From positions 292 through 64,291 of the forward strand of contig CAZWLD010000009.1 in NCBI GenBank assembly GCA_964634685.1: 64,000 nucleotides of DNA, written 5' to 3'. This DNA is from an uncultured Anaeroplasmatales bacterium (GTDB taxonomy: Bacteria; Bacillota_I; Bacilli_A; Acholeplasmatales; JAEDCM01). This document shows, one piece after another, positions 2,533-48,568 of this stretch. Numbering within the stretch: the stretch's first letter is position 1; each line of letters starts with the position of its first letter. The translations under genes and the position numbers were made by a program. The notes under the pieces were generated by a model. That model ran no database searches. It saw only the letters and a list, made by a program, of their open reading frames with translations, and was not told where the DNA came from.

Positions 2533-4884
2533 TTAGTACTTATCATCATAAGGAGTATTCTCAACCCCTTCGTCTTGTAGCTTAGTTACCATACGGTCCA
2601 ATCTCGATTTCCACATTTTTTTAAACCATTTTTTCTTTCCGAATATTTTTACAATTGTTGGACTTATTGCATAATATAGCTTTATAAACATTCTTCCATG
2701 CCATGTCTTGTCCAATTTAAAATCGCGAAAACGCCTAAGTGTCCAAACCTCAGGGCAATCATAAGAGCCATAAACACAAGTTGCAATATAGCAACCTGCT
2801 TTCCTATCTGGTTGAGTAGCTTCATATGTTAAGCCATTATAATTATAAACAAATGGATTAACTTCATACTCAACACTACTAGTTGATATTTTATTAACAT
2901 ATGCCCAATCTTTAAATTGTTTTTGGATTTTGTCTCTTTCCCTTTTTTCGTATTCAGAAAATTCATAATAAAAATGTAGTAAAGTATAGGTAGAATCATT
3001 GATTTTATACAAAAGATCGTACCATAAAGTATATGTAAATTTCAAAGTTGAACGGCCAAGGCTAATATCAAGATGGTCATTGATGCAAATAATGTCCTTA
3101 GTATAAATTGTTCTAAAATTTAAACCTTCAATATCAAAAATCACTTTATCTTCATATAAGGTAATAACCGTCTTACGATTTAATATATACCCTCCTGAAA
3201 CAGTGATTTTAGTCAATTCTAAAAATGAAGATTCAGAAATATCATTTCTAGATAACTTAGCCCAGCTTTCTAAAAGAGGTATCGCTACTTTATATTCATT
3301 TTCGGTTACAATTTTTATCTGCATTTTAACCACATTGAAGACTTGTTCACTTATCTCAAAGATTTCCTTTTTGTTAGAAAGTGATTCACCATATAAATCA
3401 ACAAATTGAACTAGGTTTGAAGACATTTCGCAATAAGAAGTGAATTTCGATTCTTTTATATTATAAGCTTCAAATGACACTCGTTTAAAATAATCTCCAA
3501 CAAAATTAAATAAAATGATAGTGTTTTTTTCTAGTCTGTTACAAAATGCATCATATTGTTCTTTTATTGAATCATTTTTCTTTGACATTTCTCTAATAAT
3601 AGGTAATCCTAATTCAGTTACTGGATTTATTGCCTTTTTAACATCCGTTTCTGATAACCCGGCATCAGACAATTTATCAAATTGTAATCTAGACTCGATG
3701 GCATTAATAATGCAATCAGCGAATAGTTTTTGTTCATTTTCGGAGGTTACATTTCCACATATATCAAAGTGACTTCTTTGATAATCACTACTCATTATTA
3801 AAAATAGCCTTCCATAGAAATTGTTGGAATCCTCTTCAAGAATACCATCTCCAAACTTTTTTAAATTAGGGTGTTTTTCACCATAAATAACTATATTATG
3901 AGATTTTAAATACTCTAAACCTTTTTTTGTTAATGATGATATCTTATTAATAATTTGTGTTTCTTCTTCATTCTTTTTATTCTCATTAGGCTTTTTAATG
4001 ATTTTTTTAATTCCTCTTACAACATCATTAATAAACCCAATTTTGCTCATATCCTGTGCTTGTAAATGCGAGAATTCCTCTGGCAATTCGTATGCATCCA
4101 TATCCTTATAGCAAGGTATAAGCATCTTACTATGATCATTTTTCATCATCTTAAGGAATCGAGACCATTCATTTTTTACCCATACAGCATTAAAATATTC
4201 AGGCTTTGTTCCTATAGAAAGCATGACCTTAGCTGAATTTAGCGCTGCAAAAATAATTGGCTCATATGCACTCCCAAGTTTATCCTCAAGAGTAATAGCT
4301 GCATAAAAAACCTTAAATCCTTCATTTGTAAGATTATGGTAAATTTCATTTGCAATCACACTATCTTTTGTTCTATTTCCGCTTGAGTCAGTTTCCTTGT
4401 AACAAATAAATACATCATAAGGCTCTTCGTTTGCAGAAATTGCAAGAATTCCTTTCTGAATTTCATCAATTTGCATTGCTTCCTTTTCATAGATTGTACG
4501 TTGTACAACATCGGCATATTGAAGAGCCTTTTTGTAATAATCATCCGCAACAATTGATTCGTATGATGTTCTATGACATGTAGGTATTCTTTTGTATGTT
4601 TTTGGATCCTCTACATACTCAATTCCAAATTTACAAAGAATAACACCCCAATATGCTTCAGACTCTCTTTCATCGTTTTGTATTATTTTTTCATAAATAG
4701 CTTCTGCTTTGTCAAATTCATTTTTTTGACGTAGTAAATTAGCTCGATTAAAAAGCCCTTGAATATTTTCATCTGTAGTACTTGGTAATGTTTGTTGGGT
4801 ACCACAGTATTCACATTCAACAACCTTTTCTCCTTCTGAAACTGAAAGCTCACCGCCACACATTTTACATTTATAAATAGCCAT
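2533..4884 (-). CDS. Zinc-ribbon / TPR-like / TIR domain protein with Cys-motif C-terminal module (TIR-A)
   Basis: 783 aa. aa1-30 form a CxxC..CxxC ribbon (CKMCGG..CEYCGT). aa45-130 are helical and TPR-like (AYWGVILCKFGIEYVEDP..PTCHR). aa155-295 form a TIR fold (YDVFICYKETD ... AVWVKNEWSRFL; Glu239 codon at 4168..4170). The C-terminal 87 aa read GCYIATCVYGSYDCPEVWTLRRFRD... The start lies 15 nt after the upstream gene and has a GGAAGAGGG RBS. Confidence 0.75.
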   Translation of the reverse strand: MAIYKCKMCGGELSVSEGEKVVECEYCGTQQTLPSTTDENIQGLFNRANLLRQKNEFDKAEAIYEKIIQNDERESEAYWGVILCKFGIEYVEDPKTYKRIPTCHRTSYESIVADDYYKKALQYADVVQRTIYEKEAMQIDEIQKGILAISANEEPYDVFICYKETDSSGNRTKDSVIANEIYHNLTNEGFKVFYAAITLEDKLGSAYEPIIFAALNSAKVMLSIGTKPEYFNAVWVKNEWSRFLKMMKNDHSKMLIPCYKDMDAYELPEEFSHLQAQDMSKIGFINDVVRGIKKIIKKPNENKKNEEETQIINKISSLTKKGLEYLKSHNIVIYGEKHPNLKKFGDGILEEDSNNFYGRLFLIMSSDYQRSHFDICGNVTSENEQKLFADCIINAIESRLQFDKLSDAGLSETDVKKAINPVTELGLPIIREMSKKNDSIKEQYDAFCNRLEKNTIILFNFVGDYFKRVSFEAYNIKESKFTSYCEMSSNLVQFVDLYGESLSNKKEIFEISEQVFNVVKMQIKIVTENEYKVAIPLLESWAKLSRNDISESSFLELTKITVSGGYILNRKTVITLYEDKVIFDIEGLNFRTIYTKDIICINDHLDISLGRSTLKFTYTLWYDLLYKINDSTYTLLHFYYEFSEYEKRERDKIQKQFKDWAYVNKISTSSVEYEVNPFVYNYNGLTYEATQPDRKAGCYIATCVYGSYDCPEVWTLRRFRDFKLDKTWHGRMFIKLYYAISPTIVKIFGKKKWFKKMWKSRLDRMVTKLQDEGVENTPYDDKY

Positions 4885-4899
4885 ATTTTTCCCTCTTCC

Positions 4900-5742
4900 T
4901 TAATTAATTTTGTTATTTAAATACTTACTATATTTTTCTCGTAAGCTCCAATTTAATTTTTCTTTATATTTACTTTTAATCAATTTATATTTCATTCGAA
5001 TATCTTCTTGTGAAATAGGATTATCTTCACTACAATTAGGTGACAACACTACTTTTGGATCATTTTTTTCACAATCAATTGCTAAATCAATATAGCATTC
5101 ATCATCTAATAATTCTAATTGCTCCTGGCTCAAATTAGCTTTATCAATTTCTATAACTAATCGGCATTCATTTTCATAAGCCCATCCATATAGTTTTGCA
5201 TAATAATCAAGTTTCCCATTTTGTATATCAAAAGGGAAATCATTAATAGAAGCATTTTTTAATCCATATATGGATTTCTTTAGTATTAAATTCTTATTAT
5301 CATCACCAACATATATAACATCAATCATTTCAATTCGGAATTTTCCCTTAGGAATATTTAAAACAAAAGTATCATCGCGTGAAATATTAATTTCATTTGT
5401 TTTGGTAATCAAGTCTTTTATTATAGACTTAGTAAATGTAAGCATAAAGCCCTCTTCTGAAGGATCAGAATATAACATCCACATAGCGATATTTTCACTT
5501 TTTGAATAAGTAAAAGATTTAACAAATCGAATTTTACCATCATTACACAGATTATCACGATCAATTATATCGTTCCAACTAGTTCCTCTTGTTAATCTAA
5601 TACTCGATTTTTTAAGCGTTTCAACAATTGATTTTCTATCCCCATAAAATGAATACTGGTCGTGATCTATCCCTTTTTTCTTCAATTCATTATACAAATC
5701 ATCCTTCGACTTAATACCCTTAAAAAAATCTTCTCTTGGCAT
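4900..5742 (-). CDS. DUF2971-like protein
   Basis: 280 aa. The motifs NIAMWMLYS and YGWAYENECRLVI match my memory of the DUF2971 signature (MW..Y and E.E.R). The ORF is 12 nt downstream of the 4TM gene. Confidence 0.55.
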   Translation of the reverse strand: MPREDFFKGIKSKDDLYNELKKKGIDHDQYSFYGDRKSIVETLKKSSIRLTRGTSWNDIIDRDNLCNDGKIRFVKSFTYSKSENIAMWMLYSDPSEEGFMLTFTKSIIKDLITKTNEINISRDDTFVLNIPKGKFRIEMIDVIYVGDDNKNLILKKSIYGLKNASINDFPFDIQNGKLDYYAKLYGWAYENECRLVIEIDKANLSQEQLELLDDECYIDLAIDCEKNDPKVVLSPNCSEDNPISQEDIRMKYKLIKSKYKEKLNWSLREKYSKYLNNKIN

Positions 5743-5754
5743 ATACTATTACCT

Positions 5755-6474
5755 CTATTTTTGCTTAGAAGCTTTTGCTTTTTGGTTTCTTTCCTTCAAT
5801 AAAATTATTAACTCATCAATATCACTAAAAATTGAATCAATAATACCAGTTGATATATTTCTTTTTAGTAATTCACAATTTTTATAAATCTCTTCCTCTA
5901 TTTCTCCCAATGAATCATTTGATACCGGATCACTGTATTTTACTTCTTCAACTAGTAATCCTAGCTTTATACGAATAGATTCTTCTGTCACCTTATTTGC
6001 TAATGTTTCTAAATCAACTCTCAAATCCGAAATAAATTTGGTAGTATTTGGTAAAGAATTTTCAATTTTAATTATTTCCTGCTTGTAAGAATCCGTCATA
6101 ATCAAACCAATTGAAGTTAATCCAATCAAAATTGACTCAATGACAATAATAATCCAATAATCTACTAAAACAAAGGAATTAAGAGTAAATAGGGCAATGC
6201 AAAGAACCATTTGAATTAACATGTATAAATATCCTAATCGGATAATTGGCCAACCATATATTTTGCTTTTGTATGTGTTTGTCTCATTCAAACCATAATG
6301 TGCAATAAATGGTTGAGAAATGATACTCAACAAGCCACAAATCCAAAGAATCCAAAAGGAAGCCTCTGATTTATGAGCAAAAGGAATAGCAAGAGCTAAA
6401 ATATTATAAACAACTCCAATAATAATTACGATAGCAATATATTTCTTAAAATTTTTATTCATTTTCTTATCCAT
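5755..6474 (-). CDS. Four-TM membrane protein with cytoplasmic helical C-terminal domain
   Basis: 239 aa with four hydrophobic helices in aa12-130, followed by a charged helical tail (..IRIKLGLLVEEVKYSDPVSNDSLGEIEEEIYKN..). The start lies 3 nt after the SPFH gene stop; the alternative ATG at 6462 has a better RBS spacing. Confidence 0.6.
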   Translation of the reverse strand: MDKKMNKNFKKYIAIVIIIGVVYNILALAIPFAHKSEASFWILWICGLLSIISQPFIAHYGLNETNTYKSKIYGWPIIRLGYLYMLIQMVLCIALFTLNSFVLVDYWIIIVIESILIGLTSIGLIMTDSYKQEIIKIENSLPNTTKFISDLRVDLETLANKVTEESIRIKLGLLVEEVKYSDPVSNDSLGEIEEEIYKNCELLKRNISTGIIDSIFSDIDELIILLKERNQKAKASKQK

Positions 6475-6477
6475 CCT

Positions 6478-8208
6478 TTACTCAGGCTTCTTGGTACCAC
6501 AATTGGGGCAAAAATTTGTTAATATATTATTCTGTCCACAAGAGCAATTCCAACCTTTTGACTCTTCAGGCTTCTTTGAACCGCAATTTGGGCAAAAACG
6601 TGTCATTATGTTATTTTGCCCACAAGAGCAATTCCAACCTTTTGACTCTTCCGGTTTCTTCGAACCACAATTTGGACAAAAATTAGTCACTATGTTACTT
6701 TGACCACATTGGCAATTCCAGCCAAAAGAAGATGAGCCAATTTGCGATGCTGAATTAATAATAGGATTAATTGTATCTTTTGCCATTCCCATAACACTGC
6801 CAACAGCACCCATAGTAACACCTAACCCAACAACATCTCCAAGAATGCTAGAGGCAAAACCTGCAGCACCTCCTTGAGGCATATTCTCCATCGCAGAAAG
6901 TGATACTTGTCGTCTCGTTTCATCTTGATATGTATATCCCTTCATTTGCATTTCCTGGGCCTCTGCTTGTGCTTTTAATCGATAGGCTTCAGCCTTTGCT
7001 TGAGCAGCAATTATTTCCTCCTGAGCTCCTGTTTGTGCTTCAACTACTCTTCTTTGCTGCTCAGCCAAGGCTACATTTTTCTTTATTTGCTCATTACGAA
7101 CTAATAAATACTGTTCAGCATACTGTTCCTTCATTTTTCTAAAATTTGGATCATCATCTGGTGTAACAACATGTAAAATATAAAATTCTGGTATATGCAT
7201 ACCATAATCCTCAAGAGTTTTATTGATTTCTATCTTCATAGAATTAGACAATGTTTCTAAATGCTCATCTACTTCTAAAATATTGATACTATTTTCCTTA
7301 ATATGTTTAGCCAAAATGCTCTTTACTTTTGAAATAACTAAAGCCTTAAATTTGCCAGATACAACTTTGATATCATAAGGATTATTAATTATATCTGTAT
7401 TTCTCAATTCAGAAGTAGTTCCAACTAGCTTTAATAGTAGTTTTCGAGAATTTACTACCCTAATATTGAACTCTCCATAGGCACCAAGTTCAATAGATAA
7501 CCCTGATATTGGATCAAACATTCTAACTTTAGTATCTGTTCCCCATTTAATTCCCGTTTGAGTGACCATATTAATGAAGTAAACTTCTGAGTGAAATGCA
7601 ACTTCACTATCAAATGGCAATTTATATAAGTTTTGCAATAAAGGCAATTTTTCTGTTGCTAATGTATATCTTCCTGCCCCAAAACAATCAAGCGCTTGCC
7701 CATCACGGAAAAATATTGCTTCTTGGGATTCATGGACGATTAATTGAGAGCCAAGATTAAAATCTTCAATAGGATGCTTCCATACTAATACATTATTGGG
7801 TCCCTCATATTTTATAACGCTTGCAAATCCTTTTTCCTTTATAGATTCTCTTGCAATAACCTCTTGGACATCCAAATGCTCTTTACAGAGGGGACAAACA
7901 TAGCTCTTTGCAGATTTATCTACTTGTAGTTTACATGAACAAGAAGGACAATTTATGTATACATAGTTCATCCTACTTTCCGATGTAACAATTTTATTTT
8001 TACATACAGGGCAATTTGCAGAATCTCCTTTAGCTTGATCGTACATTACCGAATTACCACAATGTGGACAATCTTTTATTGCGAAGCGATCTTTCCTAAC
8101 ATCAATGACTTTTCCACATTTACATTCTAAATATTTATTTGAAAAAAAACCAATAGATGCCTCCTGATAAGATCCGCATTTAGGACATTCAATAATAAAT
8201 TTAGCCAT
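6478..8208 (-). CDS. SPFH/band-7 domain protein with three N-terminal and three C-terminal zinc ribbons (SPFH-A, YdjI/COG4260-like)
   Basis: 576 aa. There are three N-terminal CxxC..CxxC pairs (CPKCGS..CKCGK, CPHCGN..CPVCKN, CPSCSC..CPLCKE). The SPFH core spans about aa125-370 (7099..7836). An A/Q/E-rich coiled coil follows, then the Gly-rich hydrophobic segment GGAAGFASSILGDVVGLGVTMGAVGSVMGMA, then 3 x GWNCxCGQxNIxTxFCPNCGxKKPE. Confidence 0.75.
   Translation of the reverse strand: MAKFIIECPKCGSYQEASIGFFSNKYLECKCGKVIDVRKDRFAIKDCPHCGNSVMYDQAKGDSANCPVCKNKIVTSESRMNYVYINCPSCSCKLQVDKSAKSYVCPLCKEHLDVQEVIARESIKEKGFASVIKYEGPNNVLVWKHPIEDFNLGSQLIVHESQEAIFFRDGQALDCFGAGRYTLATEKLPLLQNLYKLPFDSEVAFHSEVYFINMVTQTGIKWGTDTKVRMFDPISGLSIELGAYGEFNIRVVNSRKLLLKLVGTTSELRNTDIINNPYDIKVVSGKFKALVISKVKSILAKHIKENSINILEVDEHLETLSNSMKIEINKTLEDYGMHIPEFYILHVVTPDDDPNFRKMKEQYAEQYLLVRNEQIKKNVALAEQQRRVVEAQTGAQEEIIAAQAKAEAYRLKAQAEAQEMQMKGYTYQDETRRQVSLSAMENMPQGGAAGFASSILGDVVGLGVTMGAVGSVMGMAKDTINPIINSASQIGSSSFGWNCQCGQSNIVTNFCPNCGSKKPEESKGWNCSCGQNNIMTRFCPNCGSKKPEESKGWNCSCGQNNILTNFCPNCGTKKPE
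6482..6723 (-). repeat. Three tandem 84-bp in-frame repeats encoding zinc fingers
   Basis: The units 6482..6565, 6566..6649 and 6650..6723 are nearly identical at DNA level. Each encodes GWNC(S/Q)CGQ(N/S)NI.T.FCPNCG(S/T)KKPE(ESK). Confidence 0.9.
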
Positions 8209-8485: not shown

Positions 8486-8601
8486 TATTGTCTCAAAGAA
8501 AAATATCTTACTTATACTATTAGAATGTAATCATCATAAAATACTCTTTTTTCAAAAAAATTTATTCTTCTATTAATAGCTTTTGAAAGGCCACAAATTC
8601 T

Positions 8602-9612
8602 TTAAATCGAGGCAAAATAAAGGCTATTTTTCCCCGCATTTTTTATATTAATCAAACCTTGATTAAAAAGTCTTTTTTTATAAACCTGAAATTTTGAATT
8701 ATTCAATCCTGTCTCAATTAAAATATCTTTCACGTCAGCTGAATTAACCATCGCAAACATAATTTTTTGTTCAACGGATGATAATGATTCCCATATTTTT
8801 AAATAGACATTATTCTCTAAGGCTTGATCATAATCGCTTAGTATCTTTTTTGTCAATTTCTTTTCATTATTTTTAAATAAAATATTTCCAAGAAGTTGAT
8901 AGGCATAGGCATAGCCATTAGTGGCCTTGGCAAGGATTAAGGCATCTTTTTCAGAAATATTGAATATATCCTGATAGGATGAACATATCGATCTCATATT
9001 CAATGCCTCAAGCATTACTTTCTTTGTTCTCAATAAAAATGTTAATCCATTTGTATTTTCCAACTTAGAAATATTCTCATATAAGCCTGTCATAATAAAA
9101 AACACATCATATCCTTCACGTAAAAAGCTTTGAAATGAATAAACAAAGCTCTTAACAATATTGCTAGATGCAATGTCATCGACGGTGATTAAAACTCTCT
9201 TTTTCTTTTTTTTCAAATATTTGAACATTACATCCAAAAGACTATTAACGTTACTTAATGGATTATCACCACTTATTTTCAAAGATAATCCCGAAAAAGA
9301 AAAATTAAATTCTGCCTTCAGAAAAAGTTTTTTTAATCTTCCTTGATCATATATTTTCGCCGCAAGCTGTTCATGCATATCTGAAAAAGGATTTAAATCA
9401 ACAGTTATCCATTCTTCTTCATTAGAAATTTGTTTTTTTATTTTTGAAAGCATAACTGTTTTTCCAGTTTCACAAGGACCGATAATTGCTATTGCGCGTG
9501 CCTCAGGAATATCACTATTAAGTGTTGATATAATTTCGTCAAATTCGTTGCGTTCAATAAAAAGATGTGGTTCCTCACCAAAACCAATATTAAATGGATT
9601 TACCTTTGTCAT
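8602..9612 (-). CDS. AAA/P-loop ATPase (archaeal-ATPase/ORC-like) with probable C-terminal winged helix
   Basis: 336 aa. Walker A is GPCETGKT and the Walker B-like motif is VLITVDDI. The C-terminal part (SSVEQKIMFAMV..) looks wHTH-like. AAGGAG RBS lies 10 nt upstream. Confidence 0.55.
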   Translation of the reverse strand: MTKVNPFNIGFGEEPHLFIERNEFDEIISTLNSDIPEARAIAIIGPCETGKTVMLSKIKKQISNEEEWITVDLNPFSDMHEQLAAKIYDQGRLKKLFLKAEFNFSFSGLSLKISGDNPLSNVNSLLDVMFKYLKKKKKRVLITVDDIASSNIVKSFVYSFQSFLREGYDVFFIMTGLYENISKLENTNGLTFLLRTKKVMLEALNMRSICSSYQDIFNISEKDALILAKATNGYAYAYQLLGNILFKNNEKKLTKKILSDYDQALENNVYLKIWESLSSVEQKIMFAMVNSADVKDILIETGLNNSKFQVYKKRLFNQGLINIKNAGKNSLYFASI

Positions 9613-9745
9613 ATGAATTCAACTCCTTAAAATCTTACACTTTAATAGAACACACTTCCATTTGTTATTTCAATATTTTTTTGTTATGTGTTGTCATTTG
9701 TTGTTATTTGCGATTTCATTTGTTATTTAATAAAACATTACTTTT

Positions 9746-10849
9746 CTAATCGCAGTATATCGTTAAACCCTGATAAAATAATTGTTTATGAACATCTTTA
9801 GAAGAAACATCATACTTTACCTTTTCACCATCTGAATTTATATAGTACCATCCGGTTTTATTCTCAAACTCCAAAACAGGATTACAATTTCCATTTGCAG
9901 AAATCCCAAAAGGTTCAATTACTTTAATATTTTTAGGAATGATAAAAGTTTCTTCTTTATAAGCTACAGTCAAGGCACTATCCCCAATTATTTCTATTTC
10001 TTCTAAAATAACGGTATTTCGACATCCTGCAATTATCTTGTTAGTTTTTGTTTCTATGATGGCATTACAGTTTTCCCTTGAATCATAAACATCATTATCT
10101 TCATCCACCTGAATCTTTTCTAATGAGCCACATAAGTGAAATATACCAGCATCAATTTTTTTTACTGATTTAGGAATAAATATTTCAGTTAATGGCGTAC
10201 TGTCAAAGCAGCCATATCCAATAGATTCTAGATTATTAGAAAGCTTAACTGAAATTAAATTATAACACCGACCAAATGAGCCTTCGCCAAGAGATTTAAC
10301 ACTATCTGGTATTATTACATAATCTAATTTCGACCAGAAAAAAGCATAATCCTCAATTGTATGAACACTATTAGGTATATCAATTTCTGTTATTTCTGAT
10401 AAATAGAAAGCACCATATCCAATTATTTCAATATCATCAGGTATTATTGTCCCAACACATCCAGCAACCAAGGTATTAGTATCAGTTTCAACAATGGCAT
10501 TACAATTATTTCTTGAATCATATTTTTTATTATCCTTCGATACTTCCACTTTTCTTAGATTTTTATTTCTACCAAAAATACCACCATAAACACTTTCAAT
10601 ATTTTCTGAAATATAAATACTTTCCACTGTAGAAGAAATAGCATATTCGCCAATTGCCGTTACAGGCAAATCATTATACGTACTAGGAATAACTATTTTC
10701 TTTAGATTATTATCATTCAACCCAGTAAAAGTATAGCTTTCTCCATCTTCATTTAGTTCAAATTTATATTCAGCATATTCTTCCTTTTTACTACAAGAGG
10801 ATAACAATATCACAAAACAAAAAATAATAGCCACAAAAATTTTTTTCAT
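9746..10849 (-). CDS. BspA-type leucine-rich-repeat lipoprotein
   Basis: Signal peptide plus lipobox (ILLSSC). Repeated IP.SV..I...AF..C..L..I units are typical of BspA/LRR_5 repeats. It is a paralogue of the adjacent gene. Confidence 0.7.
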   Translation of the reverse strand: MKKIFVAIIFCFVILLSSCSKKEEYAEYKFELNEDGESYTFTGLNDNNLKKIVIPSTYNDLPVTAIGEYAISSTVESIYISENIESVYGGIFGRNKNLRKVEVSKDNKKYDSRNNCNAIVETDTNTLVAGCVGTIIPDDIEIIGYGAFYLSEITEIDIPNSVHTIEDYAFFWSKLDYVIIPDSVKSLGEGSFGRCYNLISVKLSNNLESIGYGCFDSTPLTEIFIPKSVKKIDAGIFHLCGSLEKIQVDEDNDVYDSRENCNAIIETKTNKIIAGCRNTVILEEIEIIGDSALTVAYKEETFIIPKNIKVIEPFGISANGNCNPVLEFENKTGWYYINSDGEKVKYDVSSKDVHKQLFYQGLTIYCD

Positions 10850-10915
10850 ACTTGCTCACTCCTATTTCTTTTAAAACATAAAAATTAAATTGCATTAAGA
10901 TTTCTTTCTTGTCAA

Positions 10916-12025
10916 TTAGTTTTCACAATATAGAGTAAAATCTTGGTGCCAAAAAGTCTTATATACTTCTTCTTCACTGACATCAAAATCCACCTTTTCA
11001 TTATTTGAATTAAAATAATACCAACCGATATTATTTTCGAATTTCACAACTGGATTAGCTGAACCACCACTTATAATGCCATATGGCTCAATTACTTTAA
11101 TATTGCTTGGAATAATAAAGGTTTCCGTGATTTGTGCGATAGAAAACGCATAGGTTCCAATAGTATCAATAAAATCAAAAATAATGCTATTGCGACATCC
11201 GGCAATGATCTTATTAGCTTTTGTTTCTATAATTGCATTACAATTATCCCGTGAATCATAAACCTCATTTTCTTCATCTACTTCAATTTTATTTAGCTTT
11301 GAACAAAAGCCAAAAGCGCCTCCACCTATCTTATTCACAGTCTTTGGAATATATATTTCCGATATAGCTGTGTCATAAAAACATTTTTCACCGATAGATT
11401 GAAGGTTGTTAGTAAGCTTAACCATAGTTAAATCACGACACTCCGCAAATGCTTTATTACCAATAGCTAAAACATTATCCGGAATAACTAAATAATCTAA
11501 ATTAGAATGATAAAAAGCATAATCTTCGATTGTATGAACGCTATTAGGAATATCTATTTCTGTTATGTTGATAAACTGAAAAGCACCTAATCCAATTTTT
11601 TCAATATCATTAGGGATTTTTGTTGTCTTACAGCCTGCAATCAAGGTATTAGTCTCGGTAAGAATAATAGCATTACAATCATCTCTTGAATCAAATTTAT
11701 TATTATCTTTAGCTACTTCAATTTTTTTTAAATCATCACACCCAGCAAAAATATTGCTTAAAAAAGTGTTAATATTATCAGAAATAAAGACGCTTTCTAC
11801 AGAATTATAGAAAAATGCATATTCACCGATTTTGGTAACTGGCTTATTTTTGTAAGTATTAGGAATAACTACATCATTAGTTACATTAGAATCAAAGCCT
11901 TCGAAGGAATAACTCATTCCGTCCTCATTTAGTTCAAATTTGAAACCAGGATATTCTTCCTTTTTACTACAAGCGGATAACATTATCATAAAGCATAAAA
12001 TACTAGCCAAAATAATTTTTTTCAT
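10916..12025 (-). CDS. BspA-type leucine-rich-repeat lipoprotein
   Basis: Signal peptide plus lipobox (IMLSAC) and the same repeat architecture as its neighbour. The start overlaps the permease stop (ATGA at 12022..12025). Confidence 0.7.
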   Translation of the reverse strand: MKKIILASILCFMIMLSACSKKEEYPGFKFELNEDGMSYSFEGFDSNVTNDVVIPNTYKNKPVTKIGEYAFFYNSVESVFISDNINTFLSNIFAGCDDLKKIEVAKDNNKFDSRDDCNAIILTETNTLIAGCKTTKIPNDIEKIGLGAFQFINITEIDIPNSVHTIEDYAFYHSNLDYLVIPDNVLAIGNKAFAECRDLTMVKLTNNLQSIGEKCFYDTAISEIYIPKTVNKIGGGAFGFCSKLNKIEVDEENEVYDSRDNCNAIIETKANKIIAGCRNSIIFDFIDTIGTYAFSIAQITETFIIPSNIKVIEPYGIISGGSANPVVKFENNIGWYYFNSNNEKVDFDVSEEEVYKTFWHQDFTLYCEN

Positions 12026-13185
12026 GCTTTCTCCCCTCTATTTCTTTTCAAAACATAAAAATTAATCAAGCCAATAACTGCCAAATATACAAGGAAAACT
12101 AAGATAATGATGATTGAATACTCAGATGTGCTTAGCTTCAATGACATTTGTTCCTCAACGAGGATATGTTTATTTAATAAATCAATCATCACGATTGATA
12201 AAATTGTTCCTAAAACAAAGGAAAAGAGATAAATATAGAGATTTTCTAGTTGAAATGTCCATTGACATTTTTTACTTGAATAGCCTAAAGACCTTAGCAT
12301 TTTAAAATACTTATATTGATCATTAAACTTAATCAAAATTGAATTAAAAAGATTAACTACACACAACAAAACAATCGCCAAAATAATAATAAAAATGATC
12401 GTATTCACAATTTCAAATTGAGCGATAATAAAATGGTTTTTTTGATATGATTCGTAGCTATTAACATGATTCTCTATGTTATGAGTATCAAAATATTCAA
12501 AATATGGCTCAAGCAACTCATATTTATTTAGATAAATATATGAAGTCATCGCATTAGATGAATCAATTCGGATAAACTCATTGTTTAAATCTTTGGAAAA
12601 AATTATGTATGAAGAATAATTACTATCTCCTAAAACAAAATTATTAAAACAATCATCTTTTACAATGCAAGCAATTTTACAATCAATAAAAGCATATTCA
12701 CTATCATCTAAGCTTAATCTTTTTCCTAGTAAATCCGTCATAGAGCATTCTTGAGTCACAGCCATTAGCTTAGCTAAACGATAATTTATAATTATTTCAT
12801 CCTTTTCTTTAGGTATTTCTCCATACATCAATCCTTCTTTTAAGCCTAAATATTCTGGTAACTTATTAAAATCATATATTAGCATCTTTGTACTTCTTGT
12901 GAAGCCTAAGTCCACATTATCTAAATAAAAGTGCTTTGAGTTATGATAATTAGAACTTCCATAACAAGTTATTAATTCAACATTTGAGGTTAATATTGGT
13001 ATTTCCTCGGTTGTTTTAGCCTTGATGTAATATTCACCTTGGTTAATACTTCCAATATCTTCATAGAGATTTTTATATCCTGTTTTAATAAAGAAAAAGG
13101 ATAAGGTCGCAAAAACAATAGCCAAAAAGATAAACATTATTTTAAAAGATCTTTTTTTATAACGGATAATATTCTTTAAAACCAT
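12022..13185 (-). CDS. ABC transporter permease, FtsX/MacB type
   Basis: 387 aa: one N-terminal TM helix, a large extracytoplasmic domain, then a C-terminal cluster of three TM helices. A TAATG overlap joins it to the upstream permease. Confidence 0.65.
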   Translation of the reverse strand: MVLKNIIRYKKRSFKIMFIFLAIVFATLSFFFIKTGYKNLYEDIGSINQGEYYIKAKTTEEIPILTSNVELITCYGSSNYHNSKHFYLDNVDLGFTRSTKMLIYDFNKLPEYLGLKEGLMYGEIPKEKDEIIINYRLAKLMAVTQECSMTDLLGKRLSLDDSEYAFIDCKIACIVKDDCFNNFVLGDSNYSSYIIFSKDLNNEFIRIDSSNAMTSYIYLNKYELLEPYFEYFDTHNIENHVNSYESYQKNHFIIAQFEIVNTIIFIIILAIVLLCVVNLFNSILIKFNDQYKYFKMLRSLGYSSKKCQWTFQLENLYIYLFSFVLGTILSIVMIDLLNKHILVEEQMSLKLSTSEYSIIIILVFLVYLAVIGLINFYVLKRNRGEKA

Positions 13186-14288
13186 TACTCATCACCTCTT
13201 AATTCTAAAACCAAATTCTTATGTGTTTTTTTCATAAGAGTATATAAAATCATCGCTAATAAAATCACAACAGTAATTAAGATAACCCACCAAAATGACA
13301 AATAAATCGGATCGATTTTGACTATTCTATTGAGTTTACTTCGAACCCATATATTTATAAGTAATGATATTAGATAGCCAATTATACTTGAAGAAATAAA
13401 TACAGCTGAGAATATCGCTATAAATAATTTTTTATCAATGCTTATTCCAAGGGAATGATTAATTAAATAAAATTTTTTGCGTTGTAAAAAATACAAATTA
13501 TTAAAATTAAACACACTAAAAGTCAAAAAGATTAAAAGAATGATTAAAACAGCCTTTAAGATTCGGTTAGCTAAAGATATGAAGAAAAAAATACCAAAAA
13601 TAACACCACCATCATCTGCAGCTAATTTTGAGGAAACATAAAAAGGAATTAAATCATCGCCTACATCAAACAAATCATAGCTTGAAGGTAAAATGAATTC
13701 AGTGTAATATTCATCTTTAGTATTCTCAAAACATTCATAAGGAACAACCACTGTACGTCCAATATCTTCTCGGAAAGTCCCCACCAAAGTTAGTTTATAA
13801 TCATTACCATATACAGATAGAATAATTTCTTCTCCTATAGAAAGACCATATTTATTCACCAGACCTTCCGTCATAAATATCGATTTTTCTTTGTCAAATC
13901 CTGAATACTTTTCTAATATATTTTTACTTGCTTTAAAGCCAAACGAGCTATAGCAATTATAATCAGTATATTCAAAATTAGAAAAACAAATAATAGTGTC
14001 TACATTTTTTCCATTAATTAAGATCGGATTATTTTCGATAATTATATCCACAATTAGCGGATATTTTGATGCAAGCTTGTCCACAAGCTTTTTATCAATA
14101 TTTTGGATTTGATATAGCATCGGGCTATTATATTTATCGATGTATTTATCGAAAATATGATAATAATTTTGAATAAAAGCGGAAATTGAAAAAATAAGGG
14201 CAAGGACAATTGATAAAGTAATAAACAATTTAATTAAGAAATACCTGCAAAGCTTAAATTCTTTAATTAATATTTTGAAGATAGTCAT
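13185..14288 (-). CDS. ABC transporter permease, FtsX/MacB type
   Basis: 367 aa with the same 1+3 TM topology. The start overlaps the ATPase gene by 26 nt. Confidence 0.65.
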   Translation of the reverse strand: MTIFKILIKEFKLCRYFLIKLFITLSIVLALIFSISAFIQNYYHIFDKYIDKYNSPMLYQIQNIDKKLVDKLASKYPLIVDIIIENNPILINGKNVDTIICFSNFEYTDYNCYSSFGFKASKNILEKYSGFDKEKSIFMTEGLVNKYGLSIGEEIILSVYGNDYKLTLVGTFREDIGRTVVVPYECFENTKDEYYTEFILPSSYDLFDVGDDLIPFYVSSKLAADDGGVIFGIFFFISLANRILKAVLIILLIFLTFSVFNFNNLYFLQRKKFYLINHSLGISIDKKLFIAIFSAVFISSSIIGYLISLLINIWVRSKLNRIVKIDPIYLSFWWVILITVVILLAMILYTLMKKTHKNLVLELRGDE

Positions 14289-14940
14289 TGATTATTTCTC
14301 CATCCGTTATTTCAATTACTCTATCCGCATATTTCAAATGCTCTTGATTATGAGTTACTAAAATAACACACTTTCCTTCATCCGCAAGCTTTCTTAATAG
14401 TTCCATTACAATTTCCCCGTTTTTCACATCTAAATTTCCACATGGCTCATCCGCAAATAAAATTGATGGATTGTTTACGATTGCCCTCGAAATCGCAACT
14501 CTTTGCGTTTCTCCACCCGAAAGAGTAGTAGCGATTTTATTTTGAAAATCTGTCATACCGACCTTCTCTAAAGCTTCATAAACGCGTTTTTTTACTTCTT
14601 CCTTCTTTAGCTTAGATAAAGCCAAGGGTAAAGCTACATTTTCATAAACGGTATATCTTGGCTCTAGGAAAAAGGATTGGAAAACAAACCCGATTTTTTG
14701 ATTCCTGATTTGATTTATTTCCTTTTCCTTCAAATCATTAATCAAAATACCATCAATATAGATTTCCCCACTTGTGGGAATATCTAAGGTCCCCATTAAA
14801 TTTAAAAGAGTTGTTTTTCCACTTCCTGAACGTCCAATAATAACATTTAAACCTTTTTCAAATTTAACATTAATGTCTTTTAAAACAACCCGTTCTTGAT
14901 ATTGCTTCGATACATTCTTAACCTCTATCATATTCATCAC
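14263..14940 (-). CDS. ABC transporter ATP-binding protein (MacB/LolD-like)
   Basis: Walker A GRSGSGKTT, Q-loop, signature LSGGETQR, Walker B ILFADEP and H-loop VTHN. Confidence 0.9.
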   Translation of the reverse strand: MMNMIEVKNVSKQYQERVVLKDINVKFEKGLNVIIGRSGSGKTTLLNLMGTLDIPTSGEIYIDGILINDLKEKEINQIRNQKIGFVFQSFFLEPRYTVYENVALPLALSKLKKEEVKKRVYEALEKVGMTDFQNKIATTLSGGETQRVAISRAIVNNPSILFADEPCGNLDVKNGEIVMELLRKLADEGKCVILVTHNQEHLKYADRVIEITDGEIINDYLQNIN

Positions 14941-15003
14941 TCCTTAAATGTCTGACTTTTTTTAATAGTGACAAAAGTATGAACTTTTGCCACTATATTT
15001 TAT

Positions 15004-16359
15004 TTAACAACTAGGCTTTGTAAAATTAAATCTAATACCTGTTCCTGTTGTATTTCTTTCAATCAAAATAGAATATTTCTCTCCCTTTATGACACTAAAC
15101 ACAAAGTTTTTCGAATTAATACCATTATATATTACATTCCCCTTAGAATCAACAATGGTAACATTAACTAGTGTATCAACTGATAAATTTATTATACCAT
15201 TAATATCAAAACGAGCCAAGTAATCAATATTATTGACATCTGACTTAAAATAAATATTTTGTCCATAGAACTCAATTAAATTAATTCCACCTTTAAATAT
15301 TTCAAATCGTTCTGTCCTACTAATCTCATTATCTAATAAAATATCATCGAAAGACTGTACAACGATATAATATTCTGAATTTTCCGATAAATTATATTCA
15401 TAATAAGATCGATTTCCAACTGTAAATTGATTCTTCAGTTCTATTAATTCTCCCTTATTTGTTATTTCAACAAAAGTATCTGCAGGTACAGAAATTGTAT
15501 ATGATCCATTACTATCAGATTTATATTTAAAACATTTGTATGTACTCATTTCCCTTTCAAAACTTACATTTCCAATAAATTGTTCTATATTGTCTGATTC
15601 TATTTTGTTTGAACAAAGTTCTGTAGATTCATTCCTTTTTAATCCAGGTACATACGTATAAACAATCCCATTTTCAAAGGTTTTGTCATAATACGCTATA
15701 TCACCGTATTTTTTTATAGTAACACTGCTAGGATCTACAAAATATCCTCTTACATCAGTTGAAACTTGAAAATACTTTACATTTTTTGAAAAAACATAAA
15801 AAGAACCATATAAAGGAACAGTAATATTATTATACGTTTTACTAGTACCATTTACTCGTTTACCTGTCACATCACACTTAATTTTTAAACTAAAGGCATT
15901 TCTATTATATTTAAATTTACCTGAAACTCCATCTAACTTAATTTCCATATCATATAGACTCACTGAATCGTAATCGACAACAATATTATCAATTGTTCCA
16001 CTGACAAATTCTGAATCAGAGAATTTTAATATTAAATTTTCATAAGATTCATTAAATACTATCTGTCCATTCAAAAAATCAAACAATCCAATTCCATCAA
16101 AAAATATAGTATTATTTGGATAAATACCAGTAATTGCAGACATTTCATCAACGTATCCTCCATACAATTTAGTAGGAAAACTACTAATATCCCTTTCTCT
16201 TCCATATACAGAAATTGAAGCACTAGGATCCACCTTTCTTCCGACAAAATCTGCAATTTTTTGTAATGGTTTTACTACTGATCCACAGCCGCAGCCAACT
16301 AATCCCATCATAAGTACTAGACTAACCATCAAAAGCACTTTTTTCAATTTTCTTTTCAT
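15004..16359 (-). CDS. Lipoprotein of unknown function (all-beta by composition)
   Basis: Start moved to ATG 16359 (MKRKLKKVLLMVSLVLMMGLVGCGC), which has GGAGGA 7 nt upstream and a lipobox LVGC. No domain recognised. Confidence 0.6.
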   Translation of the reverse strand: MKRKLKKVLLMVSLVLMMGLVGCGCGSVVKPLQKIADFVGRKVDPSASISVYGRERDISSFPTKLYGGYVDEMSAITGIYPNNTIFFDGIGLFDFLNGQIVFNESYENLILKFSDSEFVSGTIDNIVVDYDSVSLYDMEIKLDGVSGKFKYNRNAFSLKIKCDVTGKRVNGTSKTYNNITVPLYGSFYVFSKNVKYFQVSTDVRGYFVDPSSVTIKKYGDIAYYDKTFENGIVYTYVPGLKRNESTELCSNKIESDNIEQFIGNVSFEREMSTYKCFKYKSDSNGSYTISVPADTFVEITNKGELIELKNQFTVGNRSYYEYNLSENSEYYIVVQSFDDILLDNEISRTERFEIFKGGINLIEFYGQNIYFKSDVNNIDYLARFDINGIINLSVDTLVNVTIVDSKGNVIYNGINSKNFVFSVIKGEKYSILIERNTTGTGIRFNFTKPSC

Positions 16360-16440
16360 TTTTATCCTCCGTAATAAAATAAATTTTATCCATAATATTA
16401 AGAAATAAAATATCCAAAATACAGTCACATTATATTTACC

Positions 16441-17814
16441 CTATTTAATGTTTTTCAGTAACATTGAATATTTCTCTTCTTCAAAATCCTTAATTCGTTT
16501 CAATTCCACAAATTGAATATCATCATAATACTTTACTACCCTGTCAAAATCATCATCGCCTTCAAACCTTTTTCTTTTGTTTTGAAGAAAATCTAATAAG
16601 TAAATGTATAATGAATAATTATTTTTAATAATTAAGGATAACACAAGAGCTAATTCAAATAAATGTTTTTTTATTTTGCACATTTCATCGTCTATGCCAG
16701 AAACTGATCTAACAAGACATTCATGGCCACAAAATCTCCTTATCTTACATTTTAAACAAATTGGATTGCTAATAGCATTAGCAATTAACATTCTTCCTTT
16801 CACATAATCAATATTATCTATATCACCTAGACAAAGACTATCTTCGTATATTCCAGCACTACAACAATATACCTTTAAATCTGAGCTAAGTGCAAACTTA
16901 CCAATTCCAGCATCACATCTATGGTTAACTATACCATTTTCCAACACAAGTGAAATATATTTTCCAAATAAATCATCACCATTTAATATACACAATAATA
17001 ATCTAATTTTATTATTATAGATTTCTTGAATCAAAAAGTCTGTTAATCTTGTATATTGGTAATTAATAGATTCAAAGTCCAATTTATTATCCGATCTTAC
17101 AATTTTCATTGAAATTGTATTAAAATACTTACTCAAATACTTTACGGATTTTACTAAATCAATGTCCTTTCCATCAATTGTAAAGGCACAACCAACATAA
17201 TCTCTATTATCAATATTTTTGACATTATTAATGATGTACTTAAAGGTCGGTTTTCCATTTCTAAAAACTCTATTTTTATCGTGATTCCTTTTTAATCCAT
17301 CTATAGAAATCCCAAAAAGAATTCCATGATTTTGTAATACACTAGCTATTTCTTTATTCATTAGTGTCCCATTACATACAAACATAGGCAGAACTTCTTT
17401 TCTTATTTCATTTGATTTATTTCGACAATAATCAGAAACTCTTAGAATAGTTTTAAGCTCTAGTAAAGGTTCCCCGGAACCAGATAGATCAACTTGATAT
17501 TTCTTTGCATTTGGAAAATCGGAAACTATTTTATCAATAAACCTTATAATATCTTCGTATTTTACTGTCTTATTACTTTTATTCTTGTTAAAACAATATT
17601 TACAAGACAAATTACATTGCTCAGTAATATTTATTAAAATATTGATTGTACTATACGAATAAGATTCATTCATAATATCAAATGATATATCCTCATAAAA
17701 ATTACAATCAAAATTTGGTTTTTCATTATTATTAGAATAAAATAATCTACCATTTTCGGTATTTAAATAAATAAAAATACCCCCAAAATTGTACTTGTCA
17801 ATCAAAAAAATCAT
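16441..17814 (-). CDS. Radical SAM enzyme with SPASM-type C-terminal Cys cluster
   Basis: The CNLSCKYC motif (CxxxCxxC) sits at about aa69. The C-terminal Cys-rich region (HRCDAG..VYCCSAG..CLGD..CLKCKIRRFCGHEC) fits SPASM auxiliary-cluster spacing. The likely start is ATG 17814, with GGGAGA 8 nt upstream; the track start is GTG 17817. Confidence 0.75.
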   Translation of the reverse strand: MIFLIDKYNFGGIFIYLNTENGRLFYSNNNEKPNFDCNFYEDISFDIMNESYSYSTINILINITEQCNLSCKYCFNKNKSNKTVKYEDIIRFIDKIVSDFPNAKKYQVDLSGSGEPLLELKTILRVSDYCRNKSNEIRKEVLPMFVCNGTLMNKEIASVLQNHGILFGISIDGLKRNHDKNRVFRNGKPTFKYIINNVKNIDNRDYVGCAFTIDGKDIDLVKSVKYLSKYFNTISMKIVRSDNKLDFESINYQYTRLTDFLIQEIYNNKIRLLLCILNGDDLFGKYISLVLENGIVNHRCDAGIGKFALSSDLKVYCCSAGIYEDSLCLGDIDNIDYVKGRMLIANAISNPICLKCKIRRFCGHECLVRSVSGIDDEMCKIKKHLFELALVLSLIIKNNYSLYIYLLDFLQNKRKRFEGDDDFDRVVKYYDDIQFVELKRIKDFEEEKYSMLLKNIK

Positions 17815-17856
17815 CACCTTTTTCTCCCAATATCAAATAAACTCTTTTTTTTACAA

Positions 17857-17885
17857 ATTTTAACATAATTCAAATAGCAATTCAA
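17857..17885 (-). promoter_or_regulatory. Sigma-70-type promoter of the radical SAM / ABC / lipoprotein operon
   Basis: Minus strand reads TTGAAT (17880..17885), a 17-nt spacer, then TAAAAT (17857..17862) preceded by TGT (extended -10). Confidence 0.6.
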
Positions 17886-18046
17886 TTTGAAAACGGTATC
17901 ATTTTTAACTCGAAACTATTATGTATATCTAAAAAAAACACATTTTTAATCATAATAAATATAACAAAATTACCAATTCGCTAAGCAAAAAATAATATTA
18001 TCTATGATATATATAAATTTATTGCCTAAATGAGCTTTTTCCCATC

Positions 18047-18075
18047 GAAAAAAATAAAAAAAGGCTCAATGCCTT
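18047..18075 (-). terminator. Rho-independent terminator after the murI-like gene
   Basis: Minus strand reads AAGGC ATTGA GCCTT followed by TTTTTATTTTTTT. The stem is short (5 bp) but the U tract is long. Confidence 0.5.
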
Positions 18076-18131: not shown

Positions 18132-18680
18132 TCATATAATTTCATCCTGTGAAATAATTGGAAAGCTATATCTTTTCCTGAAAGCATCCTTCATAAATAT
18201 AAAATGCGTACACCCTAAAATCAAGCAATCAACATCTTTAATATCTAAAGAAAAAAAAGCATCCTCAATTCCTTTATTTTGCTCAATCGCAAGGATTAAA
18301 TCACCACCATAAAAGGTTTTAACCATTTTACCTTTAAGCATTTTTTGATAATACCCGCTCTCAATACATAATTTAGACGCAATAACACCAACTACAAAGT
18401 AAGCGGAAACGGCCTTAATAGTTGGTGTTATTATATCTAAAACTGGTTTATTAAATTGATCCTTTAAGGTTGATAAAGTATTACACGCAATAATAGTTTT
18501 CGAAAATCGATATCGATCCAATAAAAAATTAACGCGGGTTACTAATTCCTCTTTCGTTTTTTCACCATATGGAAAATAATCATTATCATAGATAAGCGCA
18601 AAGCTTTCATGCGGATATTTTTTCATCAAGCTAAATAAAATCATTAACCCACCTAATCCTGAATCAATCAAACCAATCAC
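18132..18680 (-). CDS. murI: Glutamate racemase-like protein, C-terminally short
   Basis: IGLIDSGLGGL N-terminus. Both catalytic Cys motifs are present (IIACNTLS and LILGCTHF). The protein is only 182 aa and ends at ..PIISQDEII, where canonical MurI continues for about 65-80 more aa. Confidence 0.65.
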   Translation of the reverse strand: MIGLIDSGLGGLMILFSLMKKYPHESFALIYDNDYFPYGEKTKEELVTRVNFLLDRYRFSKTIIACNTLSTLKDQFNKPVLDIITPTIKAVSAYFVVGVIASKLCIESGYYQKMLKGKMVKTFYGGDLILAIEQNKGIEDAFFSLDIKDVDCLILGCTHFIFMKDAFRKRYSFPIISQDEII

Positions 18681-45719: not shown

Positions 45720-45723
45720 AATC

Positions 45724-46315
45724 TTACAACTCCTCATTTTTCTTTTTTCTTTGAAAAAATGACTTAATGTCTTTAATTTCTAAATCTATTTTTCCATCAT
45801 CTTTTTTTATTCTTTGAACGATTAAAAATACTGTGGCAGAAATCACCAATATAGTTGAAATAACCTGAGAGGGTGATAAAAACGGCAATATTTTTCCACG
45901 ATTATCACCTCGCATAAGCTCAGCAAAGCAGCGATAAATGCCATAAACATAACTATAGACAATCCATCTTCTCTCCTTGATAAACAAAACTAATATCCAA
46001 AAAAAGATGAACATAATCCAGCCTCAATTAATTGAGACGGAATAAGCTTTGTTCAAAATCCATAAGTCATTGTTGAAATTGATTCTTCTGGATAAACCAA
46101 ACCAAAAACGGAATTGATTGGTTTTCCAAAACAACAACCCTCATAAAAACAACCAAAGCGGCCAAAGGACTAACCAATAACAAATAAAGGGATATTATTA
46201 TTTGATGTTTTTTCATAAAGCAATAAAAATATATTATACCAACAGTTATTCCTAATATGATTGTTAAGGGATATATAGCAATTTCAATATTTCCAATATT
46301 ATATTTTGGATACAT
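45724..46315 (-). pseudogene. lgt: Disrupted prolipoprotein diacylglyceryl transferase gene
   Basis: The N-terminal fragment (46067..46315) ends at a TGA. The motif IPSQLIEAGL (the Lgt HPSQLYE region) lies in a second frame at about 46015..46045. The C-terminal fragment (45724..46014, ..VYGIYRCFAELMRGDN..LSPSQVIS..) lies in a third frame. The total span of about 197 codons compares with about 270 aa for intact Lgt. Confidence 0.6.
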
Positions 46316-48462: not shown

Positions 48463-48568
48463 ACTATCTCTCCCAATATTCAACAAAATAATTCATATAA
48501 AAACAGCACATCTTTAAAGTACTATTCTAAAATTATGCAAAATCAAAAACAATATTTATTTTCTTTGA

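Follow-up and report, generated by a model that had tools for sequence, protein, structure and literature searches.

Enzymes that combine a radical S-adenosylmethionine (SAM) core with a SPASM region are, to our knowledge, known almost solely from ribosomally synthesized and post-translationally modified peptides (RiPPs), plus two cases in which a protein is modified, the sulfatases and QhpC. Among the closest described systems, CteB (TIGR03974; PDB 5WGG and 5WHY) has a seven-Cys SPASM region and acts on substrate Cys, and it carries an N-terminal winged-helix RiPP recognition element (RRE) and matures a six-Cys peptide of ~45 aa, while PapB (NF047865) targets CX3[D/E] motifs in small peptides. 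The sulfatase maturase anSME (TIGR03942; PDB 4K36-39), which has eight auxiliary-cluster cysteines, modifies a Cys or Ser of a full-length, export-bound protein in the cytoplasm and has neither leader peptide nor RRE, and QhpD (TIGR03906), in whose operon lie genes for a subtilisin-like protease and an ABC-type exporter as well, makes Cys thioethers in a protein subunit of quinohemoprotein amine dehydrogenase. Here we describe a radical SAM/SPASM enzyme (16441..17817, 457-458 aa) encoded on a 64,000-nt stretch of DNA from an uncultured Anaeroplasmatales bacterium (contig CAZWLD010000009.1, positions 292 to 64,291; hereafter the window), where it heads a unit of seven genes that, with its associated sites, lies on the minus strand. 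We judge it somewhat better than an even chance that this enzyme modifies the C-terminal tail of the 451-aa lipoprotein encoded directly downstream of it (15004..16359), because the family to which the enzyme belongs is nearly always found beside exported proteins that end in Cys.

This association was observed by calling and clustering the genes of 85 fetched loci plus the window, which together hold 88 family genes. A neighbour with Cys as its last residue lies within three genes of 66 of the 88 enzyme genes; at ranks 1-2 from the enzyme 20-21% of genes encode a terminal Cys, vs 2.9% at rank >= 7 (Fisher p = 2.6e-13), and the share of Cys-ending proteins is 36% among predicted secreted neighbours at ranks 1-3, compared with 1-2% of non-secreted distant genes. 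The Cys-tailed partners fall into ~18 families that are unrelated by BLAST and hidden Markov model (HMM) comparison, and all that they have in common is an N-terminal signal peptide or lipobox together with the tail, a hydrophobic strand followed by [P/S/G]-x-C (for example ...WPSC, ...LPSC, ...LPNC, ...LSRC, ...LMEC, ...PPYC and ...FGGC). HMMs of 13 neighbour families gave no cross-matches, and none to the window lipoprotein, which argues that the shared tail is not a homologous domain. The stop codons that follow the terminal Cys are ordinary (TAA 44, TAG 14, TGA 9), so that the Cys is the true C-terminus, and with normal stop-codon usage an extension through TGA read-through, selenocysteine or genetic code 4 is ruled out. 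Cys residues that are near-terminal and not last are not enriched near the enzyme.

The pairing is found across the entire enzyme tree, with enzyme clades tracking particular partner families. Among the closer relatives of the window enzyme, locus L086 encodes two secreted proteins ending in ...NNRC and ...KSSC, L087 has a neighbour ending in ...CGHC, and L002 a Peptidase_C92 protein ending in ...HPHC. Five apparent exceptions (L006, L012, L025, L030 and L032) proved to be truncated contigs or pseudogenes, and in four further loci a Cys-terminal protein lies slightly farther off (L001, ...FPKC; L067, ...DPTC; L070, ...QPSC; and L023). One partner family, c3, reaches the NCBIfam model 'Mplas_Cys_pep, putative cysteine peptidase' (65 bits vs 45), and a word-indexed search for c3 homologues, meant to show whether those without a radical SAM neighbour lack the tail, yielded just three near-identical proteins. 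Judged from these neighbourhoods, the conserved core is the enzyme and a Cys-terminal exported protein, with FtsX-type ATP-binding cassette (ABC) genes as a frequent accessory; the seven-gene order of the window, whose conservation was in question, is kept in the very close relatives L089 and L090 and only there.

We counted as partners those proteins that have an export signal, that end in Cys after a hydrophobic strand and [P/S/G]-x, and that lie no more than ~3 genes from a family radical SAM gene. The window lipoprotein has all of these features, with a lipobox LVGC, a predicted all-beta fold, and the ending ...IRFNFTKPSC followed by TAA in the gene that adjoins the enzyme. The initial annotation had proposed that the enzyme modifies one of the exported lipoproteins of the unit, of which three can indeed be read from the translations by their lipoboxes (MKRKLKK...MGLVG-C, ...MLSA-C and ...LLSS-C); comparative genomics points to the first of these, whose last residue is Cys451, and lends no support to the other two, which are leucine-rich repeat (LRR) proteins and are discussed below. 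The codons of the tail N-F-T-K-P-S-C (15007..15027), after which TAA comes, mark our proposed recognition and modification site.

Additional support for the tail comes through comparison with the syntenic locus L089, where flanking housekeeping genes are 93-96% identical to those of the window, the radical SAM enzyme 98%, the ABC ATPase 100%, the permeases 89%, the LRR protein 68-79% and the lipoprotein only 56%. This 56%-identical orthologue has the same signal peptide as the window lipoprotein and likewise ends in NFTKPSC, and the tail codons show synonymous differences between the two loci, a pattern from which we read the window tail as being under purifying selection. Along the pair (L089, 10001..11416) divergence is greatest in the centre, with conservation of the signal peptide and of the final ~90 residues. 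That the lipoprotein is so much less conserved than its neighbours suggests diversifying selection or recombination acting on a surface-exposed protein. In L091, where the enzyme is 60% identical, a 44%-identical lipoprotein again directly follows the enzyme, and the pair is preceded by a homologue of the 286-aa protein found upstream in L001; since the pair is kept there, it must be older than the present gene order. The lipoprotein is otherwise a lineage-specific orphan, and an exhaustive HMMER search of 1.84 billion representatives for distant homologues returned only itself and fragments.

A 14-bp stem-loop without a T-run (14965..14996; -17.2 kcal/mol, z -4.8) stands directly after the lipoprotein stop codon, between this gene and that of the ABC ATPase. 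The arms recur unaltered in L089 and L090, whereas loop and flanks differ, and the element is possibly an attenuator or mRNA-stability element that sets the expression ratio of lipoprotein to transporter.

The CNLSCKYC motif and the SPASM-type Cys cluster that had been read from the translation of the enzyme were both borne out. In an alignment of 34 family members the CX3CX2C motif (C67/C71/C74) is nearly invariant and seven SPASM Cys (C300, C318, C353, C356, C362, C366 and C379) are invariant, with the spacing C353-x2-C356-x5-C362-x3-C366 and then C379, and the same alignment holds no eighth conserved Cys. Seven is the number in CteB as well, in which one auxiliary cluster leaves a coordination site free for the substrate Cys. 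Pfam Radical_SAM (PF04055) is matched at 53.2 bits vs a cut-off of 29.5; since the Pfam SPASM model PF13186 gave no match at E <= 0.01, the SPASM assignment rests on the motif and on the structural alignment with CteB, which extends through the CteB SPASM region. The AlphaFold model of the enzyme (mean predicted local distance difference test score, pLDDT, 93) matches radical SAM structures, of which CteB is the nearest solved one (profile E 3.5e-49; Foldseek E 7e-21, TM-score 0.69) and anSME the second-nearest by both profile and fold. In the predicted architecture three short N-terminal strands precede the core, which leads into the SPASM region and then into a helical bundle of ~80 C-terminal residues that CteB does not have. 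A full RRE is not predicted in this model, only the three strands, and this fits a substrate other than a leader-peptide RiPP.

No curated cut-off of NCBIfam release 20 is reached by the enzyme. Its top match is PapB (139.4 bits vs a cut-off of 340, E 1.6e-40), with an alignment spanning positions 6-317 of the 330 in the model, and the other top matches are likewise RiPP maturases, namely those of the nif11 type, CcpM and SCIFF. An assignment as a PapB-like ranthipeptide maturase was rejected because of the score and because no small CX3D/E precursor is nearby; as a SCIFF maturase (80 bits vs 425) because in addition there is no six-Cys peptide and only three N-terminal strands are predicted; and as anSME (70.6 bits vs 349) because there is no sulfatase among the neighbours. 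QhpD scores 86 bits vs 453. By sequence, then, the enzyme belongs to none of the named families compared here and founds a sharply bounded family of its own that has no name as yet, with homologues forming ~53 clusters at E <= 1e-43 before a gap to 1e-20; an exact-sequence look-up of the enzyme gave no record. The GTDB species representatives that carry the family are for the most part Mollicutes-like Bacilli (Izemoplasmatales, Acholeplasmataceae, Anaeroplasma, RF39/Enteromonas and Haloplasmataceae), some of its records stand under other bin labels, and two or three paralogues per genome are often found. Both the NCBIfam classification and the neighbourhoods agree that this is a SPASM enzyme of the peptide- or protein-maturase type and not a member of a housekeeping clade.

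Similar to CteB, PapB and anSME, its nearest characterised relatives, all of which act on Cys, the enzyme would thus be expected to work on a Cys, and it differs from each of them in what lies beside it. No small peptide of the kind matured by CteB accompanies it, and the CX3[D/E] motif of PapB substrates is absent from the tails. anSME recognises an internal C/S-x-P-x-R target in one protein family, whereas the tails described here are terminal and are carried by many families; QhpD has one dedicated substrate in diderm bacteria, and the S8 subtilase and ABC genes that recur beside the window enzyme's family recall the protease and exporter genes of its operon. In its genomic logic the system brings to mind sortase/LPXTG, exosortase/PEP-CTERM and rhombosortase/GlyGly-CTERM, where a short C-terminal tag is likewise shared by many unrelated exported families and the processing enzyme is encoded nearby, often in several paralogous pairs within one genome. 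In those systems each tag combines a motif with a transmembrane helix and a basic tail and is cleaved extracytoplasmically by a membrane transpeptidase, whereas the tag found here is no more than ...[P/S/G]-x-Cys-COOH and its partner is a radical Fe-S enzyme of the cytoplasm, so that the likeness is one of analogy only. By such comparison the enzyme and its lipoprotein would work most like anSME and QhpD, and be organized in the genome most like the sortase and exosortase systems.

On this basis we propose that the lipoprotein is synthesized along with the enzyme, which binds the lipoprotein tail in the cytoplasm. This tail is a short hydrophobic strand, which could pair with the sheet at the N-terminus of the enzyme, and the [P/S/G]-x-Cys-COOH that follows. 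Radical chemistry on or with the terminal Cys would then take place before the C-terminus, which in a Sec substrate leaves the cytoplasm last, threads through Sec. Export and lipidation at Cys23 would follow, and the modified C-terminus would end on the surface of a probably wall-less cell, where the modification may staple, cap or tether it. The ATPase and FtsX-type permeases encoded downstream would be a dispensable accessory that may position or release the modified protein or give immunity against it. Any specific chemistry on the tail is at this point doubtful. When set against the published mechanisms of CteB, PapB, anSME and MftC, the most likely one would be a thioether of the CteB/PapB type formed through the sulfur of the terminal Cys, which is favoured by the similarity to these enzymes and by the seven-Cys count; the alternatives would be an anSME-type oxidation to formylglycine, or MftC-type chemistry using the free carboxylate, and a carboxylate-dependent reaction would explain why Cys is the obligatory final residue.

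Several observations weigh against this proposal. The support is genomic association throughout, and the modification is a predicted one. The tail offers no fixed residue that could accept a thioether, and the AlphaFold model of the lipoprotein is unusable (pLDDT 42, from three sequences). The terminal Cys could also act outside the cell, for example by forming a disulfide with the small lipoproteins often encoded after it, and the task of the enzyme would then be a different one. Moreover, a clade with the arrangement [c15][ABC][FtsX][c16]-rSAM (L022, L027, L073 and L080) has no Cys-terminal protein in the available DNA, nor do L038, L048 and L093, and the partner in L054 ends in ...WPSF. Finally, many loci come from closely related metagenome-assembled genomes, so that the raw counts overstate independence, and the ~18 partner families are the safer count of independent pairings.

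The genes of the transporter had been read as a LolCDE-like system with two distinct FtsX-type permeases. The ATPase (14263..14940; ABC_tran, 116.5 bits) and permease B (12022..13185) are clearly of the FtsX/MacB type, the latter with an FtsX domain at 55.9 bits vs a cut-off of 25.5 and four transmembrane segments (15-33, 259-277, 316-334 and 358-376) of which the first is separated from the others by a large extracytoplasmic loop. Permease A (13185..14288) has a compatible topology and a sub-threshold FtsX match over the full length of the model (E 0.018, 15.6 bits vs 25.5, residues 247-349), with no Pfam match at E 0.01 and no BLASTP similarity to permease B, and is at best faintly recognisable as an FtsX-type permease. 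The likeness to LolCDE and MacB (type VII transporters of the FtsX fold) lies in a single ATPase of the MacB/FtsE/LolD clade and in the four-segment, large-loop permease B. The Lol assignment itself was not sustained: LolD (TIGR02211) scores 211.8 bits vs a cut-off of 307.75, with FtsE and lactococcin-972-type ABC models scoring equally well, LolC/E (TIGR02212, cut-off 362.45) scores 24.5 bits for permease B and gives no match for permease A, and the Mollicutes-like groups in which the family is mainly found are monoderm or wall-less and have no outer membrane. The best model for the ATPase is 'putative bacteriocin export ABC transporter' (219 bits vs a cut-off of 254.85), and DarD also matches.

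Across the family, genes for ABC proteins, fused MacB-like forms among them, make up 8.6% of those at ranks 1-3 from the enzyme vs 1.4% at rank >= 7, an enrichment with p = 4e-6, and they accompany only about a third of the members. A frameshift divides permease A of L089 in two (12132..13234; 138 + 229 aa), and in L090 both permeases look truncated or eroded (4233..6160), while the radical SAM and lipoprotein genes are intact in both, a difference that may reflect either decay of the transporter or assembly error. Because it is present in only about a third of members, misses the LolD and LolC/E cut-offs and looks damaged in these two relatives, we regard the transporter as a recurrent accessory and not as part of the core.

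The ABC genes also form part of a six-gene operon, [lipoprotein c46][c15][ABC ATPase][FtsX][c16][rSAM], which lies at ~5.7-11.4 kb in each of five loci (L022, L027, L067, L073 and L080), belongs to an enzyme clade of its own and in 4/5 loci has no Cys-terminal partner in the available DNA. The c15 proteins share a C-terminal motif ...G-x-x-L-Y; a role of c15 and c16 as membrane-fusion adaptors of a darobactin-like tripartite pump was considered and found no Pfam support even at E <= 1. In L027 copies of a ~600-bp repeat, evident as identical small-ORF translations, flank this operon (~4665..5290 and ~11325..11950), and raise the possibility of a mobile or recombining cassette.

The last two genes of the unit encode tandem BspA-type LRR lipoproteins (10916..12025, ending in ...LYCEN, and 9746..10849, ending in ...IYCD), with LRR_5 (PF13306) matches of 134.3 and 113.7 bits vs a cut-off of 27.7. 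They had been taken for components of the module, and this view was not supported, as no LRR family recurs beside the enzyme among the 88 loci and their conserved Cys is not terminal; in L089 and L090 the LRR lipoprotein is present as a single copy. We also considered them as substrates through this near-terminal Cys and rejected the idea, since a Cys that is not last shows no enrichment near the enzyme. The best explanation of their presence would be that they are co-transcribed passengers. The window encodes two more large LRR proteins of the BspA/HupY-like kind outside the unit (43524..45737 and 46363..48486), so that surface proteins with LRRs are plentiful in this genome independently of the radical SAM enzyme.

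The absence of a precursor peptide bears on whether the locus could be a conventional RiPP or bacteriocin cluster, with its precursor encoded elsewhere or overlooked, the ABC/FtsX genes serving export or immunity as in the parallel cases of darobactin (DarE with DarBCD) and the lactococcin-972-type ABC systems, and the lipoproteins as bystanders. The RiPP maturases at the top of the enzyme's HMM matches, the bacteriocin-exporter and DarD matches of the ATPase, the enrichment of ABC genes and the one clade with solely ABC/FtsX-type neighbours all speak for such a cluster. Nevertheless, small-ORF listings of the window contain no Cys-rich small ORF, as had been noted initially, and neither the window, its syntenic loci nor the ABC-only clade has a conserved small ORF or a small leader-core precursor gene adjoining the maturase, so that the statement that a conventional precursor gene is lacking now extends to the relatives examined. 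The syntenic loci L088, L089 and L090, whose upstream region is otherwise 96% identical to that of the window, have a 2-bp indel that disrupts the 23-aa ORF (17882..17953 in the window), and for this reason the ORF is not considered a gene. Adding to this the scores far under all family cut-offs and the lack of a predicted full RRE, and considering that a RiPP cluster leaves the Cys ending of ~18 unrelated exported families unexplained, we find this explanation unlikely. Still less credit is due to a LolCDE-like extraction or export machine as the core, moving three lipoproteins, with the enzyme as an add-on: one ATPase, two different permeases of FtsX-like topology and three surrounding lipoprotein genes fit such a machine, but the widely missed LolD and LolC/E cut-offs, hosts mainly without an outer membrane, ABC genes that accompany a minority of members, and permeases that look damaged beside an intact enzyme and lipoprotein make it very improbable. 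Weak matches to NirJ/AhbC-type heme enzymes (E 1e-12 to 1e-17) would allow for a housekeeping or cofactor radical SAM enzyme with coincidental neighbours; peptide and protein maturases match much better, however, and with several paralogues per genome and a strongly non-random neighbourhood we give this almost no weight.

A different biological role on the same substrate would follow if the Cys-terminal proteins were effectors or toxins for whose activity or stability the enzyme installs a cap, with small lipoproteins or the ABC/FtsX genes protecting the producer. Partner families that vary around one common tag, the peptidase-like partners (c3 and Peptidase_C92) and the S8 subtilase after the enzyme in one clade, the small lipoprotein genes that come after the Cys-terminal gene, in tandem in L023, L055 and L075, and the fast evolution of the window lipoprotein relative to its neighbours are all consistent with such an effector-immunity module. 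On the other hand no toxin domain was identified, the window lipoprotein would be membrane-anchored through its lipobox and not released, and the window has no small immunity-like gene; we therefore hold the effector role to be a small chance. Returning to the modification of surface-protein tails, we place at about even the broader proposition that Mollicutes-like Bacilli, most of them wall-less, possess a hitherto unrecognised system in which a dedicated SPASM family modifies the last Cys of a minimal Cys-COOH tag on unrelated Sec-exported surface proteins and lipoproteins before their export. It would be the analogue, cytoplasmic and based on radical chemistry, of the sortase and exosortase systems of walled bacteria.

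We found no description of such a system in the open-access literature and no curated model for it in NCBIfam release 20, and rate it as a SPASM maturase whose substrate class and tag are both new. If true, the substrate scope of SPASM chemistry would be widened to ordinary surface proteins of ~18 unrelated exported families, and a new and easily searchable C-terminal tag would be defined. It bears on wall-less gut and sediment bacteria (RF39, Izemoplasmatales, Acholeplasmatales) that are without the usual wall-anchoring routes, and what is at stake for them is the finishing or stabilising of fast-evolving surface proteins, peptidases and adhesin-like lipoproteins. For annotation it would account for 'orphan' SPASM enzymes without a precursor and give a rule for predicting their substrates.

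Some further arrangements were noted within the family. The S8 subtilisin-like peptidase (Pfam, 96 bits) lies between the radical SAM enzyme and a ~550-aa ...PSC protein in five loci of one enzyme clade (L006, L008, L014, L021 and L085), an arrangement that recalls the QhpD/QhpE pairing. The small lipoprotein or membrane-protein genes that regularly come after the Cys-terminal gene encode ~150-250 aa and belong to several unrelated families; their tandem arrays hold two or three copies (in L023 at 8506..9906), and the layout resembles that of immunity genes or partner subunits. On the short contig L092 (71..4357) an enzyme 50% identical to that of the window is followed by genes for an acyl carrier protein and a 796-aa double-ketosynthase.

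With respect to the unit as a whole, all seven minus-strand ORFs are present as described initially, with the same tight junctions (a TAATG overlap of 1 nt at 13185, an ATGA overlap of 4 nt at 12022..12025 and 26 nt at 14263..14288). The single promoter proposed for it, TTGAAT-17-TAAAAT with an extended -10 TG (17857..17885), exists as a sequence match at a plausible position; since promoter-like matches occur in this AT-rich DNA at chance density (80 seen vs 76.7 expected) and also inside the operon, transcription from one promoter is unproven. Upstream, a terminator-like hairpin (AAGGCATTGAGCCTT, then a T-run; 18061..18075) that is invariant across four syntenic loci ends a murI-like gene and marks the 5' boundary of the unit. 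An Rfam scan of the window gave no match. The murI-like gene, annotated as glutamate racemase (18132..18680, minus strand), encodes 182 aa vs ~251-267 aa in the model and scores 105.6 bits vs the NCBIfam cut-off of 146.65, and because the same length is kept in L088 and L089 it may be diverged or repurposed.

Beyond the other end of the operon, with no terminator detected between, comes a KAP/AAA-type P-loop gene (8602..9612), at whose position L089 has a different gene (AAA_14/DUF4143). Two zinc-ribbon proteins are encoded farther on, both on the minus strand. The first, of 576 aa (6478..8208), bears several CxxC pairs of the zinc-ribbon kind in its N-terminal part and, towards the C-terminus, three nearly identical copies of GWNCxCGQxNIxTxFCPNCGxKKPE, and gave no NCBIfam match at E <= 1e-10. 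The second, of 783 aa (2533..4884), combines an N-terminal CxxC...CxxC zinc ribbon with a C-terminal NCBIfam 'CFI-box-CTERM' domain (72.5 bits vs a cut-off of 40; ...GCYIATCVYGSYDC...); the term CFI-box was not found in the open-access literature searched, and this C-terminal domain is unrelated to the terminal-Cys tag.

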